From Staphylococcus phage Machias: 64,000 bases of DNA. Location: sequence record MW349128.1. The stretch is one strand, 5' to 3'. The position numbers and the translations under genes are program-made. The notes under the pieces were generated by a model. The model made no database searches, was not told the DNA's origin, and saw only the letters and a program-made list of their open reading frames with translations. Below, in pieces: positions 1,701 through 62,190 of this stretch; the first letter of the stretch is position 1; each line of letters starts with the position of its first letter.

Positions 1701-2822
1701 ATGGTTAGATTTTTACTCAAGAAAAAGGATTTAGAAAATGTTCCAGTTGTAACTAATCATGAATCAATTGATAAGAAAGGTGATTTCACTGAAGATGGTA
1801 TCTTCAGTGAGAAAATCTTTGGTCCTGATTCAGAAGCAGATAATATTACTAATGAAGCTATTGTAGATTTAGGTAATAATTATATTTTAAATCCGTTAGG
1901 TTATGAACGTGTTAAAAAATTAATTGGTAATAAAAGATTCCAAGAAATTATTAGTTCTGAAAAACCTATTGATGAAAATGGTAATGTAATTGAACCTGAA
2001 GATGATCATAACTCTTATATTGGTTTAATTGAATTTAGAAAGAATTTCTTAAAAATTCTTAAAGAAGAAGTTAAACGTGAAAAACGTAAAACTAAAGATT
2101 ACAATAGAGTAGTACAATGGTATTTATCTGATTTACTATTCCAAAATTATGTAACTGTATTTAGTCCTAAATTAAGACCTGCTACAGTTAATAAAGCTAC
2201 TAAAACTTTTAGACATTCTGAAATTAATAAAGATTATAATTTATTAATTGCTCATAGTAATAGTATTAAAGAACTTGATAGACATTATACAGATGATTCA
2301 GTAGAGTTACAAAAATTAAATCTATTAAGTAAAATTCAAGATGATAGTATTAATATTAGTGATCGTGTAATTAATGAGAATATTAAAGGTAAAGGTGGAA
2401 CTATTCGTAAATTACTAATGGGTAGTCGTGTTGGTTTTTCTGCACGTTCAGTAATTGTTCCAGCACCTGATCTTAAATTAAATGAAATTAGATTAAATTA
2501 TACTATTTTCTTAGAAGTTTATAAACCTATCTTAGCAAATTTAATGTATGTAACAGAAAATATTCCTTTAGCTAAAGGTGAAGAAATATTAGACAGAGCA
2601 CTAGATACATTTAATCCTAAAGTATATAAATATATGAGAGAACTAGTTGATAAAACTGAAAATGGAATGAGAGTTATTTTAAATAGGAATCCCAGTATTA
2701 GTGAAAGCTCAGTTCAAATATTGAAAATTAAAGATATTATTCAAGATATAGAATCATCAGTAGTAGGTATTAGTAATAATATACTTGCTGGTATGGGTTA
2801 TAAAGGTAGCCTTTCATTATAG
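1701..2822 (+). CDS. multisubunit RNA polymerase beta-prime-like subunit, N-terminal fragment, exon 1
   Basis: GKGGTIRKLLMGSRVGFSARSVIVPAPDLKLNEIRL matches the universal beta-prime motif RxNLLGKRVDxSGRSVIVxGPxLKL. Downstream, VILNRNPSISES matches LLNRAPTLHRLG. The ORF stops (TAG) exactly where NADFDGD should be, and the coding sequence resumes after the intron region. The true exon end is probably a few codons before the annotated stop. Confidence 0.75.
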   Translation: MVRFLLKKKDLENVPVVTNHESIDKKGDFTEDGIFSEKIFGPDSEADNITNEAIVDLGNNYILNPLGYERVKKLIGNKRFQEIISSEKPIDENGNVIEPEDDHNSYIGLIEFRKNFLKILKEEVKREKRKTKDYNRVVQWYLSDLLFQNYVTVFSPKLRPATVNKATKTFRHSEINKDYNLLIAHSNSIKELDRHYTDDSVELQKLNLLSKIQDDSINISDRVINENIKGKGGTIRKLLMGSRVGFSARSVIVPAPDLKLNEIRLNYTIFLEVYKPILANLMYVTENIPLAKGEEILDRALDTFNPKVYKYMRELVDKTENGMRVILNRNPSISESSVQILKIKDIIQDIESSVVGISNNILAGMGYKGSLSL

Positions 2823-2975
2823 TGATATAATGTCAAAAGAATTTTAATTGCTGAGAAGATTATTAAATTAATCAGCATCGATCAAAATGATTGTTCAACG
2901 ACTAAATAAATTCACTCACTAATATGAGTTTGATATAGTCTAATCTTCATAGAAAAATCTCTATGAAGTTAATAT
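2823..2975 (+). mobile_element. group I (IA-type) intron, copy 1, in the beta-prime gene
   Basis: Canonical core elements are present: P TTAATTGCTGAGAAG (2845), Q AATCAGCATC (2870), R GTTCAACGACTAAATA (2893), S TGATATAGTCT (2931), and a P9-like hairpin CTTCATAGA/TCTATGAAG (2945-2968). Boundaries are approximate. Confidence 0.65.
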
Positions 2976-3166
2976 ACATGGCCGATTAAATAATAGTCGC
3001 TTTAAATTGAGAGATTTATAGAAAAGAATATTAATTGCTGAGAAGATTATTAAATTAATCAGCATCAAGTTAATACAATTTGTTCAACGACTAAATATAT
3101 TCTACCTTAAATGGTAATGATATAGTCTCGTCTATATGATAATATTTATATAGATTAAGATAAACG
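2976..3166 (+). mobile_element. group I intron, copy 2 (in tandem with copy 1), in the beta-prime gene
   Basis: P TTAATTGCTGAGAAG (3031), Q AATCAGCATC (3057), R GTTCAACGACTAAATA (3082), S GATATAGTCTCG (3118). The element ends before the in-frame YDGD exon. Boundaries are approximate. Confidence 0.6.
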
Positions 3167-3373
3167 TATGATGGTGATACTTTAAATATTATAGCACTAT
3201 TTTCAGAAGAACAATACGAACAGTTAAAAGTTCAAGATCCAGTAAATCAATTAATTTCATATAATGATGGATTATTTAATAGAACTTACTCGCTTAATAA
3301 AGACTCACAAATAGCTGTTTATTTACTAAATAACCCTAAATCAAAAAATGTAGGTATTAAAGCTAGTGAATAA
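3167..3373 (+). CDS. RNAP beta-prime-like N-terminal fragment, exon 2 (begins at the catalytic YDGD)
   Basis: An unlisted in-frame fragment reads (T)YDGDTLNIIALFSEEQYEQLKVQDPVNQLISYNDGLFNRTY...KASE*. It aligns to E. coli beta-prime [21 protein letters not shown]. It has no start codon and an in-frame TAA lies immediately upstream, so it must be joined by splicing. Confidence 0.6.
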   Translation, partial: YDGDTLNIIALFSEEQYEQLKVQDPVNQLISYNDGLFNRTYSLNKDSQIAVYLLNNPKSKNVGIKASE

Positions 3374-3444
3374 GTAATTTTAATGGATAATCTTTATGAT
3401 TATCCATTCTTATTATACTTTATAAATATGGAGGATTTTATAGA

Positions 3445-4020
3445 ATGATAAAATATAAAACGAATAATGAAAAGAATTTAATCGATATGGCTGAAAAATC
3501 GTTAGATATATTTTATGAAGAAATTTATAAAGAATTACTTAAGATTGATCAGGATTATATTAATCAAGATATTATTAATGATATTATAAAAGAATCTAAC
3601 ATTTTTAAAGATAATTCTAAAAAACATATTAAAAAGATTGTTAACAATGATATTAATAAAGTTGTAAGTGTAACTTTAACTACAACACATTATGAAATAT
3701 CTAGATTTTTATGTAATACTTTTGCTGAAAGACTTAATATGGTTTTAAATGCTTTATATAGAGTTAATAAAGGAACTTTAGGACATAAATATGAAAATGA
3801 ATCATTAGGAATAAGTGGTACTTATGATATAACTGATGGAATTAATACGTGGAAAAACGAATTAATTTCAGAAATATATAATACAACTAATTTCTTAGAA
3901 AATGTCATTAAAAGTAGAATTAGAAAATATATTAGAAGTAATTTTAATTATAAAAAATTAGATAATACTGGTGCTTATACATTTAACAATAATATTTTTA
4001 TTGATAGACTATTAAATTGA
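3445..4020 (+). CDS. hypothetical protein
   Basis: 191-aa ORF with a GGAGG RBS and no recognisable motifs. Confidence 0.6.
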   Translation: MIKYKTNNEKNLIDMAEKSLDIFYEEIYKELLKIDQDYINQDIINDIIKESNIFKDNSKKHIKKIVNNDINKVVSVTLTTTHYEISRFLCNTFAERLNMVLNALYRVNKGTLGHKYENESLGISGTYDITDGINTWKNELISEIYNTTNFLENVIKSRIRKYIRSNFNYKKLDNTGAYTFNNNIFIDRLLN

Positions 4021-57092: not shown

Positions 57093-57737
57093 ATGAAGAC
57101 TATGGCTATAACAAAATTAAAGAAAAAAATTTATTACGATTATAAAACTAATAACGTAAGCTTTTTAAGAGTTGCTAAAGAACTTAAAGATAATAATATA
57201 CAAAATTATGGTCTACCATTAACTCTATATGATAAGAAATTAATTGGCGTTGATCCTTGGGATGAAGATTTAGATAATGAAATGAAAACTCGTGTTATTA
57301 GGGAAGCTAAACTTAATATATGGTTTTATTTAAGAGAAGTTATCAGAGTTCCAGTTCCAGGTGGTAAGGTAATGTATGAACTTCATAGAGGTAACTTAGC
57401 TATGACGTTTTGTATGCTGCATAATTTAGATACTGCAATAATGTTACCACGTCAGCACTATAAAACATATTCTGCAGTATGTTATTATTCATGGATTATG
57501 TTATTGGTAGGTAATAACTATACAATGTTATTTACACATAAATCATACTCGGACACTACTGAAAACCTTAAAAGATTAAAAAATCTATTCAAAGAGAAGT
57601 GTTTACCTGAATATGTATTAGCTAACTTTGGAGATAAAAATGATAGAGATAAAATTAATGAATTTTCTTTAGCAAGTAATAACAACACAATAAAAACAGT
57701 ATCACCTCCAACAAATGCTGAGAGTAAAATACGTGCT
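57093..57737 (+). CDS. terL: large terminase (T4 gp17-like), exon 1 (ATPase N-terminal part)
   Basis: Walker A-like LPRQHYKTYS against T4 SRQLGKT. IKTVSPPTNAESKIRA against T4 IGAYASSPDAVRGNSFA. The annotated stop at 57755 lies inside the intron leader. The exon end is approximate. Confidence 0.6.
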
Positions 57738-57884
57738 CTCATTAAACTCTATTAACTGCTGAAAAAGATACTAAACCAATCAGCATCAATCAAATTGATT
57801 GTTCAACGACTAAATATAGAGATAATTAATATTATAAGATATAGTCTAGTGTGTATGAATATCATACAATGTATTACGGCAAAC
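57738..57884 (+). mobile_element. group I intron, copy 6 (terL)
   Basis: P TTAACTGCTGAAAAAG (57752), Q AATCAGCATC (57778), R GTTCAACGACTAAATA (57801), S AAGATATAGTCTAG (57837). Confidence 0.6.
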
Positions 57885-59118
57885 AAAGCAGGAAGAGGTA
57901 GCACCGTATGTAGATGCAGTGCATAAAGATTTTTAATTGCTGGAAGACTAATAATGAAGTTAATCAGCATCACTTTAATTAGTGTTCAACGACTAAATAA
58001 AATCAATTTTAATAATTTTTACTGTTAACATTCCTTTATCAGTACGATAACGGAGGGATAAAATGCCTAAAGGTGTTAAAAGTAAAGAAAAATTCATAGA
58101 ACAAAAAAATAAAACTTTTAAAGAAATAAAAGATATCAATGGAGATAAATTTGAAATACTGGGAGAGTATAAAAATTCTAAAGAACCAATTAAATGTCAT
58201 TGTAATATATGTGATAGAGATTTTTTCTTACCTACTGAAAAACTAAGATTAAAAAGAAAATTCTGTAATAGAAAAGATTGTAGATATTCAGAAAAACCCA
58301 AGAATTCTAAAGGTAAAGAAACTTTTTTAATAGAATTAAAAGATAAGTTCGGATTTAATTATACTTATATTGAAGGATTCAATGGAATGAATAAAAAGTG
58401 TAGATTCCGTTGTGGAAAATGTGGAAATATAAGATATTTTGCAAAGCCTTCTACTCTAATGGATAAAAGAAAGAAGTATAATTCAGTAAACTGTAACAGA
58501 TGTATAAATAATGAAAATTATATCATATTAGATAGTCAAGAATTATCTAAAAAGACAACAGAAGAGTTTCAAGGTGAATTAGATATGATATTTGGATATA
58601 ATAAATTTAATGTGTTAACTGAATATACTAGGAGCAAAGATTATATCTATTTGAAGAGTAATGACTGTGGACACAAATTTAAAACGAGACCAGATGATAT
58701 ACTTAAAAGAAAAAGATGTAGTGTATGTTCTAAAAGTATAGGAGAAATTGCCATCATTGAATTACTTCAAGAGAATAATGTAGAATATGAGAATGAAGTT
58801 ACTTTTGAAGGATCTAGTTTTAGATTTGATTTTTATTTTAAAAAAATAAATACTGTAGTTGAAGTAGATGGAAAAGGTCATATAAAAGGTTATGGAAATT
58901 TCATTAATGATAAAAGAAACAAAAGCAAAAGAACACCTGAAGATATAAAAAAATTAGATAATGAAAAAGATGAATTTATAAGAAGCAAAGGAATAAATAT
59001 GATACGTCTCCCTTACCAGAATAGAATAAATGAAGAATTAATTATCCCTATGAAAAAATTATTAAAATTATGATATAGTCTGATCTGCATGGATTATCAT
59101 GTAGTTTAACGTAAATGA
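57885..59118 (+). mobile_element. group I intron, copy 7 (terL), carrying a homing endonuclease ORF in P8
   Basis: P TTAATTGCTGG (57934), Q AATCAGCATC (57962), R GTTCAACGACTAAATA (57985). The HEG ORF spans 58063-59073. S TGATATAGTCTGA (59071) overlaps the HEG stop codon. P9 hairpin CTGCATG/CATGTAG follows. Confidence 0.6.
58063..59073 (+). CDS. intron-encoded homing endonuclease, EDxHD/Vsr-like (PD-(D/E)xK) with tandem CxxC zinc ribbons
   Basis: 336 aa with GGAGGG RBS. Three C-x2-C...C-x2-C pairs. C-terminal VVEVDGKGHIKGY...MIRLPY fits the E-x-D-G-x-x-H Vsr/DUF559-like catalytic core (compare I-Bth0305I). Confidence 0.5.
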   Translation: MPKGVKSKEKFIEQKNKTFKEIKDINGDKFEILGEYKNSKEPIKCHCNICDRDFFLPTEKLRLKRKFCNRKDCRYSEKPKNSKGKETFLIELKDKFGFNYTYIEGFNGMNKKCRFRCGKCGNIRYFAKPSTLMDKRKKYNSVNCNRCINNENYIILDSQELSKKTTEEFQGELDMIFGYNKFNVLTEYTRSKDYIYLKSNDCGHKFKTRPDDILKRKRCSVCSKSIGEIAIIELLQENNVEYENEVTFEGSSFRFDFYFKKINTVVEVDGKGHIKGYGNFINDKRNKSKRTPEDIKKLDNEKDEFIRSKGINMIRLPYQNRINEELIIPMKKLLKL

Positions 59119-59202
59119 CCTATGGTTTGGCTTGATGAGTGGGCGTTTATACCGCATAATCAAGTAATGTTTGAAGCGATGAGTAAAAAGGCTCCATCTT
59201 TA
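59119..59202 (+). CDS. terL: terL micro-exon (Walker B)
   Basis: (P)MVWLDEWAFIPHNQVMFEAMSKKAPSL aligns to T4 gp17 [23 protein letters not shown]. An in-frame TGA lies immediately upstream and a TAG at the end. Boundaries are approximate. Confidence 0.55.
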
Positions 59203-59355
59203 TAGAAATATAGATGATGAATAATATTAACTGCTGAAAAGTTTAAAAACCAATCAGCATCATTAAATAATGTTCAACGACTAAATTTATTAAATCTTAA
59301 AAAGATTATGATATAGTCTGATCTGCATGGATTATCATGCAGCTAACATAAATGA
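59203..59355 (+). mobile_element. group I intron, copy 8 (terL)
   Basis: P TTAACTGCTGAAAAG (59227), Q AATCAGCATC (59252), R GTTCAACGACTAAAT (59272), S TGATATAGTCTGA (59309), P9 CTGCATGGATTATCATGCAG. Confidence 0.6.
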
Positions 59356-59442
59356 CCAGCAATAAGTACAGCTTCAAGAATTGCAAAAGAAAATGGTTCT
59401 CCTTATGGACTTCTTATCACAACTACACCTAAAATGACTGGG
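59356..59442 (+). CDS. terL: terL micro-exon (ATPase motif III region)
   Basis: TAISTASRIAKENGSPYGLLITTTPKMTG against T4 ISSGRRSKIIITTTPNGLN. It is bounded by in-frame stops. Confidence 0.55.
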
Positions 59443-60975
59443 TGAAGATAAATTAAAATTTATCTTAAGGACTTTATTAATTGCTGAAAGGTCCTTAGAG
59501 CTTAATGAGCTACAACGTGACTGGCAACAGTGAGCGTGATATGCTTAAAAATCATTAAGATTGGAAAATCAGCAGCTAATTTTCAATTTAATAAATTATT
59601 AAATCAATAATGAACAACTCTTTATACAAAAGATGTAGGAGTTGGTAATTTTGGATTTTTATGAAAAATTAAATAAAAAATTTGATAACAGTATAATAAC
59701 AAAAGAAAAATATATAAACGGCAATGAAAAGATTAAATTCTATTGTAAAAATTGTAAAAATTATTTTTATTCTAAACCTAGAAAAATTATTGAATCATCT
59801 TATAAATCATGTCATTTATGTAGGAAAAGGGAAAAAGAAAATATATTTAGGAATAATCTCATTAATATGATAAATAAAGAAATATATGAAATTATTGAAA
59901 TGAAAGATCCTATAAAAAATAATGAAAAATTTTCTTTAAAACATAAAGAATGTGGAAATATCTTTTCTATATCAGTGAGTAATTTTAAAAAAGGAAGAAA
60001 ATGCCCATATTGCTCAAATAAGCCTATGAAAAGGGATCAAAATTTCTTTTTAGAAAAAATAAATAATATTGATTCAAGTTTCTTAAAAGAATATGAATTA
60101 AAAAGCAATTATATAAGCGTTAACGAAAATATTAAAATTAAACATAAAGAATGTGGAAATATCTTTAATACTACCCCTAATAGAATTTATAGAGGTAATA
60201 GATGTAGTATGTGTTCACATAAATCTGATAAATATAATTTTAAAGAGGTAAAGAGTATAATAGAAAAAGATGGAAAATTTAAACTTTTATCTAATAATTA
60301 TATAAATAATAAATATAAATTAAAAATAAAATGTCTTAACTGTGGTAATATACAAGAGAAAAGTTTAGTTACATTTCAAGATAAAAGAAATAGAAAATGT
60401 ATATGTGAAAAATATTCTTTACCAATTCGTTATATAACAAATTTTTTAATAGATAAAAATATAAATTTTGAGCTAGAAAAAAGATTTGATAATTGTAGAA
60501 ATATTAGACCTTTACCCTTCGATATTTTTATAAATGATTTTAATATTCTAATTGAATATGATGGGGAACAACATTTTAAACCAATATATGGTATAGAAAA
60601 ACTCAATAAAACTAAAATAAATGATGAAATAAAAAATAATTTTTGTAATAAAGAAGGAATAGAATTAATTAGAATAAACTGTTATGATAATTATGAAGAT
60701 AAAATTGAAAATTTAGTTCAACGACTATCGAAAGTTGAGTATACATCGTGAGGATATATACAATATAAATGAGTAGAGTACAGCCAAGCGGTTAGTTTTT
60801 AAGTGATATTAGCTTAATATAATTCTATTAAATGGAAACATAAAGACGTGTATATTAACACATATACGTAAGATATAGTCTCAACGTTTAGGGAAAACCT
60901 AAAGAAGTTCATAAGAGAACTGGTATAGATTAGCGATCTATATTGAAGATTTTGAGTACTCTCGACACATCTCAA
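59443..60975 (+). mobile_element. group I intron, copy 9 (terL), carrying a second homing endonuclease ORF
   Basis: P TTAATTGCTGAAAGG (59477), Q AAATCAGCAGC (59567), HEG 59642-60751, S AAGATATAGTCTC (60870). The R element was not confidently located. The 3' end is set where the T4-aligned exon (GQFFFQQMNEAAQ against LNHFYDIWTAA) starts. Confidence 0.5.
59642..60751 (+). CDS. intron-encoded homing endonuclease, EDxHD/Vsr-like, paralog of 58063-59073
   Basis: 369 aa with TTG start after AGGAG. Repeated KHKECGNIF...C.YC zinc-ribbon units. C-terminal ILIEYDGEQHFKP...LIRIN has the E-x-D-G-x-x-H core. Confidence 0.5.
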   Translation: MVILDFYEKLNKKFDNSIITKEKYINGNEKIKFYCKNCKNYFYSKPRKIIESSYKSCHLCRKREKENIFRNNLINMINKEIYEIIEMKDPIKNNEKFSLKHKECGNIFSISVSNFKKGRKCPYCSNKPMKRDQNFFLEKINNIDSSFLKEYELKSNYISVNENIKIKHKECGNIFNTTPNRIYRGNRCSMCSHKSDKYNFKEVKSIIEKDGKFKLLSNNYINNKYKLKIKCLNCGNIQEKSLVTFQDKRNRKCICEKYSLPIRYITNFLIDKNINFELEKRFDNCRNIRPLPFDIFINDFNILIEYDGEQHFKPIYGIEKLNKTKINDEIKNNFCNKEGIELIRINCYDNYEDKIENLVQRLSKVEYTS

Positions 60976-62190
60976 GGGCAATTTTTCTTTCAACAAATGA
61001 ATGAAGCAGCTCAATGGAATGAAAAAATATATGATTATTTTATTGATAGTGAAGAAGAAGGAAATTCTAAATTAGAAAAATACATGGAAGATAATTCAAA
61101 TAATGAATTCATGTATATAGAATATTCATATAAAGAATTAGGTAAAGATGAAAATTGGTTAGAAAAACAAAAGAGACAAATTGGTTCTTTAGAAGCTGTT
61201 AAACGTGAGATATTATTGGAATGGGCTTATAGTTCTGATGATTCATTATTCTCTGAAGAACAAATGACTGAAATATCTATGTATGCTAATAAAGAAATAT
61301 ATAATACTCTTGAATTTAATATTGATGGTAGAACTTATTATGTAAATATGATTAAATATATGGATAATATTACAGAGAAAAATTGGCTTATTGGTATTGA
61401 TATGTCTGGTGGTTTAGGACGAGATAATACAGCGTTTACTGTAGTGGATCCAGCTACTTTGGAACCAGTAATGACTTTTAAAAATAATGTAATTAATGGA
61501 CCTACATTCAGAAAATTAATTAAAGAATTGGTTAGTTTCTATATACCTAACGCTATATTAATACCTGAACGTAACTATGCAGGTTTAACAGTAATTGATC
61601 ATATGATATCTTATGATGGTTTAGAATCTAATTTATTCTATACGCTTAAAACTCGTGTAGCTGAAAAGCAAGTAGAAAATAAAAGTTTATTTAATGAAAT
61701 GTCTAGATATAGCAAAACTGAAAAAGTTAAAAAAGAAACTCGTAGATATGGTATTGATACAACTAAAAAATCTCGTGATATAATGTTAAATGAAATATTA
61801 TCTATGCTTGTTGAAGAAAAACCACATTTAATTAATAATAAACCACTTTTCCAAGAAATCAAATCTTTACAAATGATTAAAGGACGTATTGACCATCCAC
61901 CGGGAGGTCACGATGACTTAATGATGTCTTATTTATTCTGTTTATATGCGTATTACTATGAAAAAGATATTAATAAATTTGTAAAAATTAAATATGGTTC
62001 TAAACTCTCACCTAACAGTGAAAATGCAGAAGGAATGAAAAAAGAACAAGAAGCTAGAAGAAAAGATATTGCTTCAATTAAACGTATCAATAGTGTTATT
62101 GAAGGAAATGATATGAGTAATTCTATATTTGGTCAACAACAAAAACCAATGGATAACAATAATAAACGTATTATGGATTTATTCAAATAA
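60976..62190 (+). CDS. terL: large terminase (T4 gp17-like), final exon (nuclease domain)
   Basis: DHPPGGHDDLMMSYLFCLY against T4 EEGYHDDLVMSLVIFGWL. Also LIGIDMSGGLGRDNTAFTVV (RNaseH-like Asp). The track ORF start at 60943 is upstream of the likely 3' splice site. Confidence 0.6.
   Translation, partial: GQFFFQQMNEAAQWNEKIYDYFIDSEEEGNSKLEKYMEDNSNNEFMYIEYSYKELGKDENWLEKQKRQIGSLEAVKREILLEWAYSSDDSLFSEEQMTEISMYANKEIYNTLEFNIDGRTYYVNMIKYMDNITEKNWLIGIDMSGGLGRDNTAFTVVDPATLEPVMTFKNNVINGPTFRKLIKELVSFYIPNAILIPERNYAGLTVIDHMISYDGLESNLFYTLKTRVAEKQVENKSLFNEMSRYSKTEKVKKETRRYGIDTTKKSRDIMLNEILSMLVEEKPHLINNKPLFQEIKSLQMIKGRIDHPPGGHDDLMMSYLFCLYAYYYEKDINKFVKIKYGSKLSPNSENAEGMKKEQEARRKDIASIKRINSVIEGNDMSNSIFGQQQKPMDNNNKRIMDLFK

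Follow-up and report, generated by a model that had tools for sequence, protein, structure and literature searches.

Group I introns are already known from core genes of phages, including the catalytic motif of the multisubunit RNA polymerase (RNAP), and so are tandem introns separated by short exons. The locus considered here is the gene for the N-terminal beta-prime fragment of the non-virion RNAP in a stretch of 64,000 nucleotides (nt) from Staphylococcus phage Machias (MW349128.1; the whole stretch, with a G+C content of ~25%, is called the window below), in which the codons of the motif G-A-D-Y-D-G-D are very probably interrupted by two independent group I introns lacking an open reading frame (ORF), located 6 bp apart and spliced out to give a subunit of 436 amino acids (aa). 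The nearest described counterpart is gene g270 of phage AR9, which is orthologous, has a group I intron inside its GDYDGD motif and is annotated with a coding sequence (CDS) joined from two pieces. It differs in having a single intron at DYDG/D (site C; position taken from the GenBank record and our own translation), which encodes the HNH endonuclease g271 and leaves no micro-exon. Site C is 9 nt downstream of the intron 2 site (B) and 15 nt downstream of the intron 1 site (A) of the window, and the AR9 core is unlike the intron family described below, scoring only 17.5 bits with the family model R1. In phage vB_StaM_PB50 exon 1 is 96% identical to that of the window at the DNA level and the same motif is interrupted by an intron core of the same family (R1, 96 bits); however, this is a single intron of ~1.7 kb at site C (GADYDG/DTLN) with a 504-aa phrog_559 endonuclease, sites A and B being empty.

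Among less related systems, introns 2 and 3 of Twort orf142 are also two similar ORF-less tandem group I introns with a very short exon and with exon skipping as a risk or an occurrence, although that exon has 23 nt against 6 nt in the window, and both the host gene and the intron family are different (Landthaler and Shub 1999, as summarized in PMC10136302); the shortest phage and bacterial exon precedents given in that summary have 23 and 34 nt. Exons of a few bases between self-splicing introns in conserved catalytic genes are described from organelles, with a single-base exon in placozoan cox1 (PMC5436844) and mini-exons as well as introns lying side by side in mitochondrial genes of fungi (PMC12308204), but in contrast to the window these are organelle genomes, in which the introns are mostly large and ORF-bearing and proteins act as splicing cofactors. 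No report of a few-base exon between self-splicing introns in a phage or bacterium was found in the literature library searched. Phage PhiPA3 resembles the window in having a group I intron at a conserved site of a jumbo-phage multisubunit RNAP gene, the endonuclease of which can act in interference competition between phages (PMC12908238); it differs in phage family, in the subunit concerned and in its endonuclease-bearing intron, introns 1 and 2 of the beta-prime gene being ORF-less and any competitive role of theirs presumed. The PhiPA3 case offers a frame for understanding competition over such sites. Korn et al. describe the RNAP genes of these phages as intron-disrupted, with beta-prime N disrupted in AR9 and intact in MarsHill. 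What appears to be new, within the library and databases searched, is the pair of ORF-less mini-introns 6 nt apart enclosing a two-codon catalytic exon; Korn et al. may already count three exons.

Beta-prime gene and its reconstructed product

The closest DNA relatives of the window are phages AH12 (97.5% identity) and S6, PALS_2, Madawaska, MarsHill, DC4 and SA1 (~85%). The Madawaska annotation gives the upstream gene (75-1697 in the window) as the N-terminal fragment of the non-virion RNAP beta subunit and the gene matching the start at 1701 as the beta-prime N-terminal fragment. The ORF 1701-2822 contains SARSVIVPAP and ILNRNPS, in agreement with the signatures recognized in the first-pass annotation, and matches the Pfam profile RNA_pol_Rpb1_2 (PF00623) with 30.4 bits against a cut-off of 25.3, covering profile positions 1-120 of 166 and ending ahead of the DxDGD part. 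The same annotation had taken the entire ORF for exon 1; its beta-prime-like nature holds, but the exon ends at 2798 and the remainder is intron, the first 24 nt of intron 1 prolonging the ORF to a TAG at 2820-2822. The last eight codons of the ORF (YKGSLSL*) are thus intronic, and the naive junction KGSL/TYDGD proposed earlier was wrong. The start-less in-frame fragment noticed downstream, (T)YDGDTLNIIALFSEEQYEQL..., was found as described at 3164/3167-3370, beginning from 3167 with YDGDTLNIIALF and followed by a stop at 3371-3373. The parts of the gene are as follows:

1701-2798, plus strand: exon 1, 366 codons ending ...ILAGMG, last codon GGT (from the ORF, its motifs, PF00623 and the Madawaska alignment)
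2795-2812, plus strand: P1 of intron 1, exon GGGU and intron UAU paired with the guide GUAGCCU, U.G at U2798
2799-2980, plus strand: intron 1, 182 nt, ORF-less group I, P1-P9, GNRA loop on P2, terminal G2980
2981-2986, plus strand: micro-exon GCCGAT, 6 nt, Ala-Asp (from intron-less homologues and the AH12 and L010 layout)
2987-3166, plus strand: intron 2, 180 nt, ORF-less group I, P1-P9, GAGA (GNRA) loop on P2, terminal G3166
3167-3373, plus strand: exon 3, 68 codons YDGDTLNIIALFSEEQYEQL...KASE, then the stop TAA at 3371-3373 (from translation and tblastn)

The exon-intron boundaries could be fixed because the intron-less homologues of Madawaska and LY01 read through the motif uninterrupted. 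The uninterrupted 436-aa gene of Madawaska reads ...ILAGMGADYDGDTLN at the motif (in longer context ...VVGISNNILAGMGADYDGDTLNIIALF...), its DNA being GGA ATG GGA GCA GAC TAT GAT GGC GAC for the protein GMG-AD-YDGD, and LY01, uninterrupted at these sites, contains the exact ligated-exon DNA ATGGGTGCCGATTATGATGGTGAT corresponding to the join of window positions 2798, 2981-2986 and 3167 (intron-free ligated junction sequence GGTGCCGATTATGATGGTGAT). In megablast the identity to uninterrupted relatives ends at query position 1298-1299, equivalent to 2797-2798 of the window, and in tblastn of exon 3 to the relatives the match in AH12 begins at Tyr. A shift of either intron by one base results in the same protein, and only the chosen boundaries provide both a U before the 5' sites and a terminal G. 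The predicted spliced mRNA reads ...GGTATGGGT GCCGAT TATGATGGT... across the junctions, with the predicted junction peptide ...NILAGMGADYDGDTLNIIALFSEEQYEQLK (also given as DIIQDIESSVVGISNNILAGMGADYDGDTLNIIALFSEEQYEQLK). By its position against the intron-less genes, the micro-exon GCCGAT is assigned to Ala-Asp of the (N/G)ADxDGD motif. This Asp leads the three catalytic aspartates, and in DxDGD it belongs to a Mg-binding triad that is universally conserved. A micro-exon with GCCGAT had been suggested earlier within 2971-3013: the hexamer does supply Ala-Asp, but the exon consists of exactly these 6 nt and the bracket was far too wide.

The joined CDS of 1311 nt encodes a 436-aa product in which the catalytic motif is restored as expected by the first-pass annotation, in the form GADYDGD and not NADFDGD. 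The product is identical to the Madawaska protein at 386 of 436 positions without gaps. The profile comparison that the annotation had named as a check, run on the unspliced ORF and on the spliced product, gave a beta-prime-like result for both, with the PF00623 score increasing from 30.4 to 43.8 bits and the match extending over profile positions 1-155. Residues 18-424 align to chain d of PDB entries 7S00/7S01, the AR9 non-virion RNAP beta-prime N subunit (E 1.8e-70), with gmgADYDGDtlnii standing opposite alsGDYDGDvlnii. The product therefore has the features of multisubunit RNAP beta-prime in the jumbo-phage non-virion split form, metal-binding loop GADYDGD included, and by these matches the gene starting at 1701 is assigned as the N-terminal beta-prime fragment of the phage non-virion RNAP, as had been supposed for a split jumbo-phage polymerase.

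Two group I introns of one family

In a search of 801 nt, Rfam RF00028 matched 2977-3148 (38.8 bits, E 2.8e-8) and 2789-2962 (26.8 bits, E 1.1e-4), which agrees with the two group I cores proposed between the coding fragments. Both matches span the complete model, and for the length searched their E-values are significant. Rfam detected the introns only in this search and the family model R1 was therefore built; the core word GTTCAACGACTAAAT, present in the window in eight exact copies against ~3 near-matches expected by chance, pointed to an intron family. R1 scores intron 1 with 158 bits and intron 2 with 162 bits. The long P2, P5, P6, P8 and P9 insertions of RF00028 are absent from these introns of ~180 nt.

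The common structure was analyzed in a sequence-only MAFFT alignment of nine members, comprising introns 1 and 2, three introns of the prohead protease gene, two of the terminase gene and the two AH12 orthologues. RNAalifold found P4, P6, P7, P8 and P9 in it unaided. Standard pairs occupied 98.3% of the cells in P3, P4, P6, P7 (pseudoknot), P8 and P9, in contrast to 26-41% in a control in which the 3' partner was displaced by 1-3 columns; compensatory changes were present in 18 of the 35 pairs, and the observed values were reached by none of 500 shuffles. P7 is invariant across the family alignment and thus uninformative for covariation, and P5 was excluded from the count, with register shifts between members in the MAFFT alignment.

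All designated P1-P9 pairs are canonical or G.U in both introns (55/55 in intron 1 and 48/48 in intron 2). The P1 hairpins fold as predicted, with U2798.G2809 and U2986.G2996 forming U.G at both 5' splice sites, and both 3' ends carry the omega G (G2980 and G3166). The minimum free energy fold of intron 1 reproduces P1, P2, P4-P7 and P9 (z = -3.4), and the P2 loop is of the GNRA type in every orthologue (GUGA, GUAA, GAGA, GAAA). By reading of their sequences, the other family members of the window follow the U.G rule, except for terminase intron T3. This comparative and structural evidence confirmed 2799-2980 and 2987-3166 as group I introns of one phage-specific mini-intron family. Each has its own complete P1-P9 and the two are separated by coding sequence, so that they are tandem and not nested as in a twintron. 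No endonuclease ORF typical of a mobile intron was present, there being no ORF of at least 40 aa wholly within 2823-3444 on either strand.

Conservation of the intron pair

Introns 1 and 2 are 69.5% identical overall and share a stretch of 45 nt with 98% identity at a regular spacing of 187 nt, the feature that might suggest a repeat-induced duplication of one intron during assembly. The chance of such an artefact is practically negligible. The nearest relative of intron 2 is the protease-gene intron Px (81-83% identity), which, together with the overall identity of only 69.5%, makes the pair neither a recent duplication nor an assembly artefact; the copies differ in P1, P2, P6, P8 and P9, AH12, sequenced independently, and a diverged metagenome contig repeat their layout, and a lone intron at either site would break the frame or the motif. 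Two separate insertions are the likely origin of the pair, because the introns are only ~70% identical.

Phage AH12 has the identical intron/GCCGAT/intron layout. Its introns differ from those of the window at eight positions, all of them structure-neutral (in a loop, in the tail or pair-preserving), including a GUGA to GUAA loop change, G.U to A-U and C-G to U.G. The joined CDS differs by 29 synonymous and 2 non-synonymous codons, exon 3 by synonymous codons only, and none of the exons contains a frameshift or stop; this codon comparison shows the joined frame to be under purifying selection. The metagenome contig L010 (Ga0079226_10064759), with a beta-prime N protein 88% identical to that of the window, contains the same cassette (intron 1 at 1655-1832, GCCGAT, intron 2 at 1839-2018). 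Its intron cores are 82% and 87% identical to those of the window, score 133 and 127 bits with R1, although L010 was not among the sequences used to build the model, and have compensatory changes in P3, P4, P6 and P8. The 5' exon end, P1, both guide sequences, the terminal Gs and the hexamer are invariant in the window, AH12 and L010.

These comparisons make it highly unlikely that the gene is a decaying pseudogene whose introns no longer splice, with the phage using another polymerase or another copy. Such a state might be suggested by the public annotation, which splits the pieces (AH12 has a 373-aa 'rpoBC' and no entry for exon 3, and Machias QQO92396.1 is the 373-aa read-through), and by the scores of both introns below the Rfam gathering threshold. 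Against it stand the excess of synonymous over non-synonymous differences from AH12 in exons free of frameshifts and stops, the compensatory or neutral nature of the intron substitutions in two lineages and the solved structure of the AR9 enzyme, in which beta-prime N is a core subunit present in single copy.

An additional intron of the family is present in the beta-prime gene at LNR/NPSISE, another conserved beta-prime motif, in LY01 (L006, 1-139) and in L010 (1387-1545). It apparently lacks P9, having only AAUGAAAAG after P7. In LY01 this intron is accompanied by empty A and B sites with the exact ligated-exon sequence, as would be expected either if the two introns had been lost precisely or if this were the ancestral target.

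Proposed splicing and exon skipping

In the proposed mechanism each ribozyme would fold separately after transcription (P1-P9 with the P3/P7 pseudoknot) and remove itself through two guanosine-started transesterifications, intron 1 by a cut after U2798 and rejoining before G2981, and intron 2 by a cut after U2986 and rejoining before U3167. The mature mRNA would then consist of exon 1, GCCGAT and exon 3 and encode the 436-aa subunit with an intact catalytic triad. The dependence of an essential active site on two splicing events, as put forward in the first-pass annotation, can soundly be inferred from this arrangement.

The six-base exon fits intron 2 closely. The corresponding codons are GCAGAC in Madawaska, PB50 and SA1, GCTGAC in S6 and GCCGAT in the intron-bearing alleles and LY01; within the micro-exon, the T at position -1 pairs with G10 of intron 2 and the C at -4 with G13, so that the synonymous choice of GCC GAT fits the intron 2 guide sequence. 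P1 of intron 2 takes up the entire exon, with a single C bulged, the terminal G of intron 1 can pair as well, and an in-register P10 of 3 bp is available with exon 3 (UAU/AUA).

Several points weigh against accurate removal of both introns. Splicing in vivo, its order and its efficiency are what we infer from sequence. Both introns stay under the RF00028 gathering score of 50 bits; at that threshold Rfam matched neither of them nor any other family member in the whole window, and in E-value mode it missed the entire family on stretches of 12.5 and 50 kb. By sequence reading, the guide of intron 1 pairs with the micro-exon only at a one-base offset (GCC/GGU), its GUA (intron nt 8-10, 2806-2808) is in P10 register with UAU 3167-3169 of exon 3, and the long-range P7 strands are identical in the two introns. 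The register of the intron 1 guide with exon 3 and the identical P7 strands make some exon skipping, with loss of Ala-Asp, plausible in a fraction of the transcripts; the skipped product should be inactive. Furthermore, only six bases separate the terminal G of intron 1 from the cleavage site of intron 2, and simultaneous docking of both intron cores may be impossible. The intron 1 guide GUA also pairs with the first bases of the intron itself, UAU, likewise in the L010 orthologue.

If the 5' site of intron 1 were instead joined to the 3' site of intron 2, a block of 368 nt (2799-3166) including GCCGAT would be lost, leaving GMG/YDGD without the first catalytic Asp, either as waste or as a deliberately inactive regulatory form of the subunit. 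The same register of GUA with exon 3 speaks for this outcome, as do the nearly identical P4-P5 and P7 strands of the two introns, which make hybrid cores possible, and the skipping reported for the 23-nt exon of Twort orf142 and the 34-nt exon of Coxiella 23S rRNA (PMC10136302). Nevertheless, it is distinctly improbable: GCCGAT, the U at -1 and the guide of intron 2 are kept in three genomes, which is unexpected for mere intron sequence, and P3, P6, P8 and P9 have diverged with internal compensation, favoring independent folding. In addition, Ala/Gly-Asp is retained in all intron-less homologues, its Asp being the first of the universally conserved Mg triad. Removal of the two introns one by one with retention of the micro-exon is therefore preferred.

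A joint reading that goes further is tentative and on the whole unlikely. According to it, six bases would be as short an exon as two ribozymes can physically recognize, the first half of it pairing with the intron 1 guide (P10, offset) and the whole exon with the intron 2 guide (P1), and splicing would proceed in a fixed order or cooperatively rather than independently. The intron pair would be inherited and move as one cassette and shield the gene from the site-C endonuclease intron by splitting the 15-bp active-site target, and a measurable fraction of exon-skipped, catalytically dead beta-prime would represent either an inherent cost or a means of timing the change to the non-virion polymerase. 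The three sites fall within 15 bp; A and B always occur together (3/3 genomes) and never with C, in a sample too small for a conclusion, and protection by introns A and B against the site-C endonuclease might at most be surmised.

Intron family elsewhere in the window and in relatives

Application of R1 to the window revealed family members in three genes only, those for beta-prime, the prohead protease and the terminase. Within the phage collection, blastn found the family in five Staphylococcus jumbo phages only, with 10-31 places per genome; the genomes named with it are AH12, LY01, PB50, MarsHill and Madawaska. The introns are typically ORF-less and 150-180 nt long, and the relatives in PB50 and in the terminase gene carry phrog_559 endonucleases. 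Lengths of 141-182 nt would be short among natural group I introns.

Three family introns, located with the intact PALS_2 gene as a guide, interrupt the prohead protease/scaffold gene (minus strand, 52258 to 50924):

~52035-51882, minus strand: protease intron Pa (R1, PALS_2 guide)
51621-51443, minus strand: protease intron Px (R1, PALS_2 guide)
51442-51432, minus strand: second micro-exon TATGACTGGGT, 11 nt, between Px and Py, encoding Y-D-W-V(partial)
51431-51273, minus strand: protease intron Py (R1, PALS_2 guide)

With the same guide, splicing would give ...RLIC-YDWV-VIPSHQ. Intron Pa falls within a Ser codon (T/CA), for which PALS_2 has AGT. The protease micro-exon TATGACTGGGT resembles TATGATGGT between beta-prime sites B and C. 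Copying of the beta-prime intron pair as a unit from the protease gene was considered and set aside; with ~76% identity, the PB50 site-C intron stands no nearer to Py than to other members.

The large terminase gene (57093-62190) contains four introns, two of them with endonuclease ORFs, as judged with the intact copy of S6:

57726-57878: terminase intron T1 (S6 guide)
57879-57907: internal exon, 29 nt, ANKAGRGSTV
~57908-59118: terminase intron T2, with endonuclease ORF 58063-59073
~59183-59354: terminase intron T3 (S6 guide)
~59431-60954: terminase intron T4, with endonuclease ORF 59642-60751

The two other internal exons have ~63-65 nt (a Walker-B-like WLDEW segment) and ~76 nt. Korn et al. 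state that the terminase gene could not be reconstructed; the intact S6 copy permits its reconstruction in the window. For T3, the frame given by S6 has the upstream exon ending ...ATGAG and the next one starting ACCAGCA (59176-59186, 59350-59358). Boundaries of T3 chosen for a U before the 5' site (ATGAGT/) and a terminal G produce a frameshift, and no combination satisfied both the frame and the splice-site rule.

Sequences adjoining the beta-prime gene

An inverted repeat of 18 nt, 83% complementary with a 5-nt loop, is located at 3375-3415, beginning 2 bases after the beta-prime stop, and may be a terminator or an RNA-stability hairpin. Both the window (3445-4020) and AH12 have an ORF of 191 aa directly 3' of the beta-prime gene, at a place where Madawaska and PB50 lack it; this ORF was considered as a free-standing endonuclease and had no Pfam or PHROG match. 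AH12 also has an insertion of 189 nt directly after the beta-prime stop, flanked by an 8-nt direct repeat GTGAATAA (L002, 3367-3567), with a 66-aa ORF resembling, by eye, a small helix-turn-helix protein.

Implications for annotation and for intron biology

A two-codon exon escapes ORF callers and exon prediction based on protein alignment. The correct 436-aa subunit was absent from a collection of 15 billion proteins, public records giving the 373-aa read-through ORF, and a scan of the spliced protein against IMG/VR found no relatives; a look-up of contigs encoding the 373-aa ORF gave no record either. Rfam with its default settings likewise overlooks the intron family, and the authors of one genome analysis, relying on Rfam, reported that there were no introns (PMC10638138).

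If spliced as proposed, the gene would offer a natural example of an exon of 6 nt common to two group I ribozymes, in which the whole micro-exon is the P1 substrate strand of one ribozyme and abuts the terminal G of the other. Such an arrangement bears on splice-site choice, on the avoidance of exon skipping and on whether splicing is ordered. With three different intron sites within 15 bp at the active-site codons across close relatives, the locus is well suited to the study of competition between introns and endonucleases.

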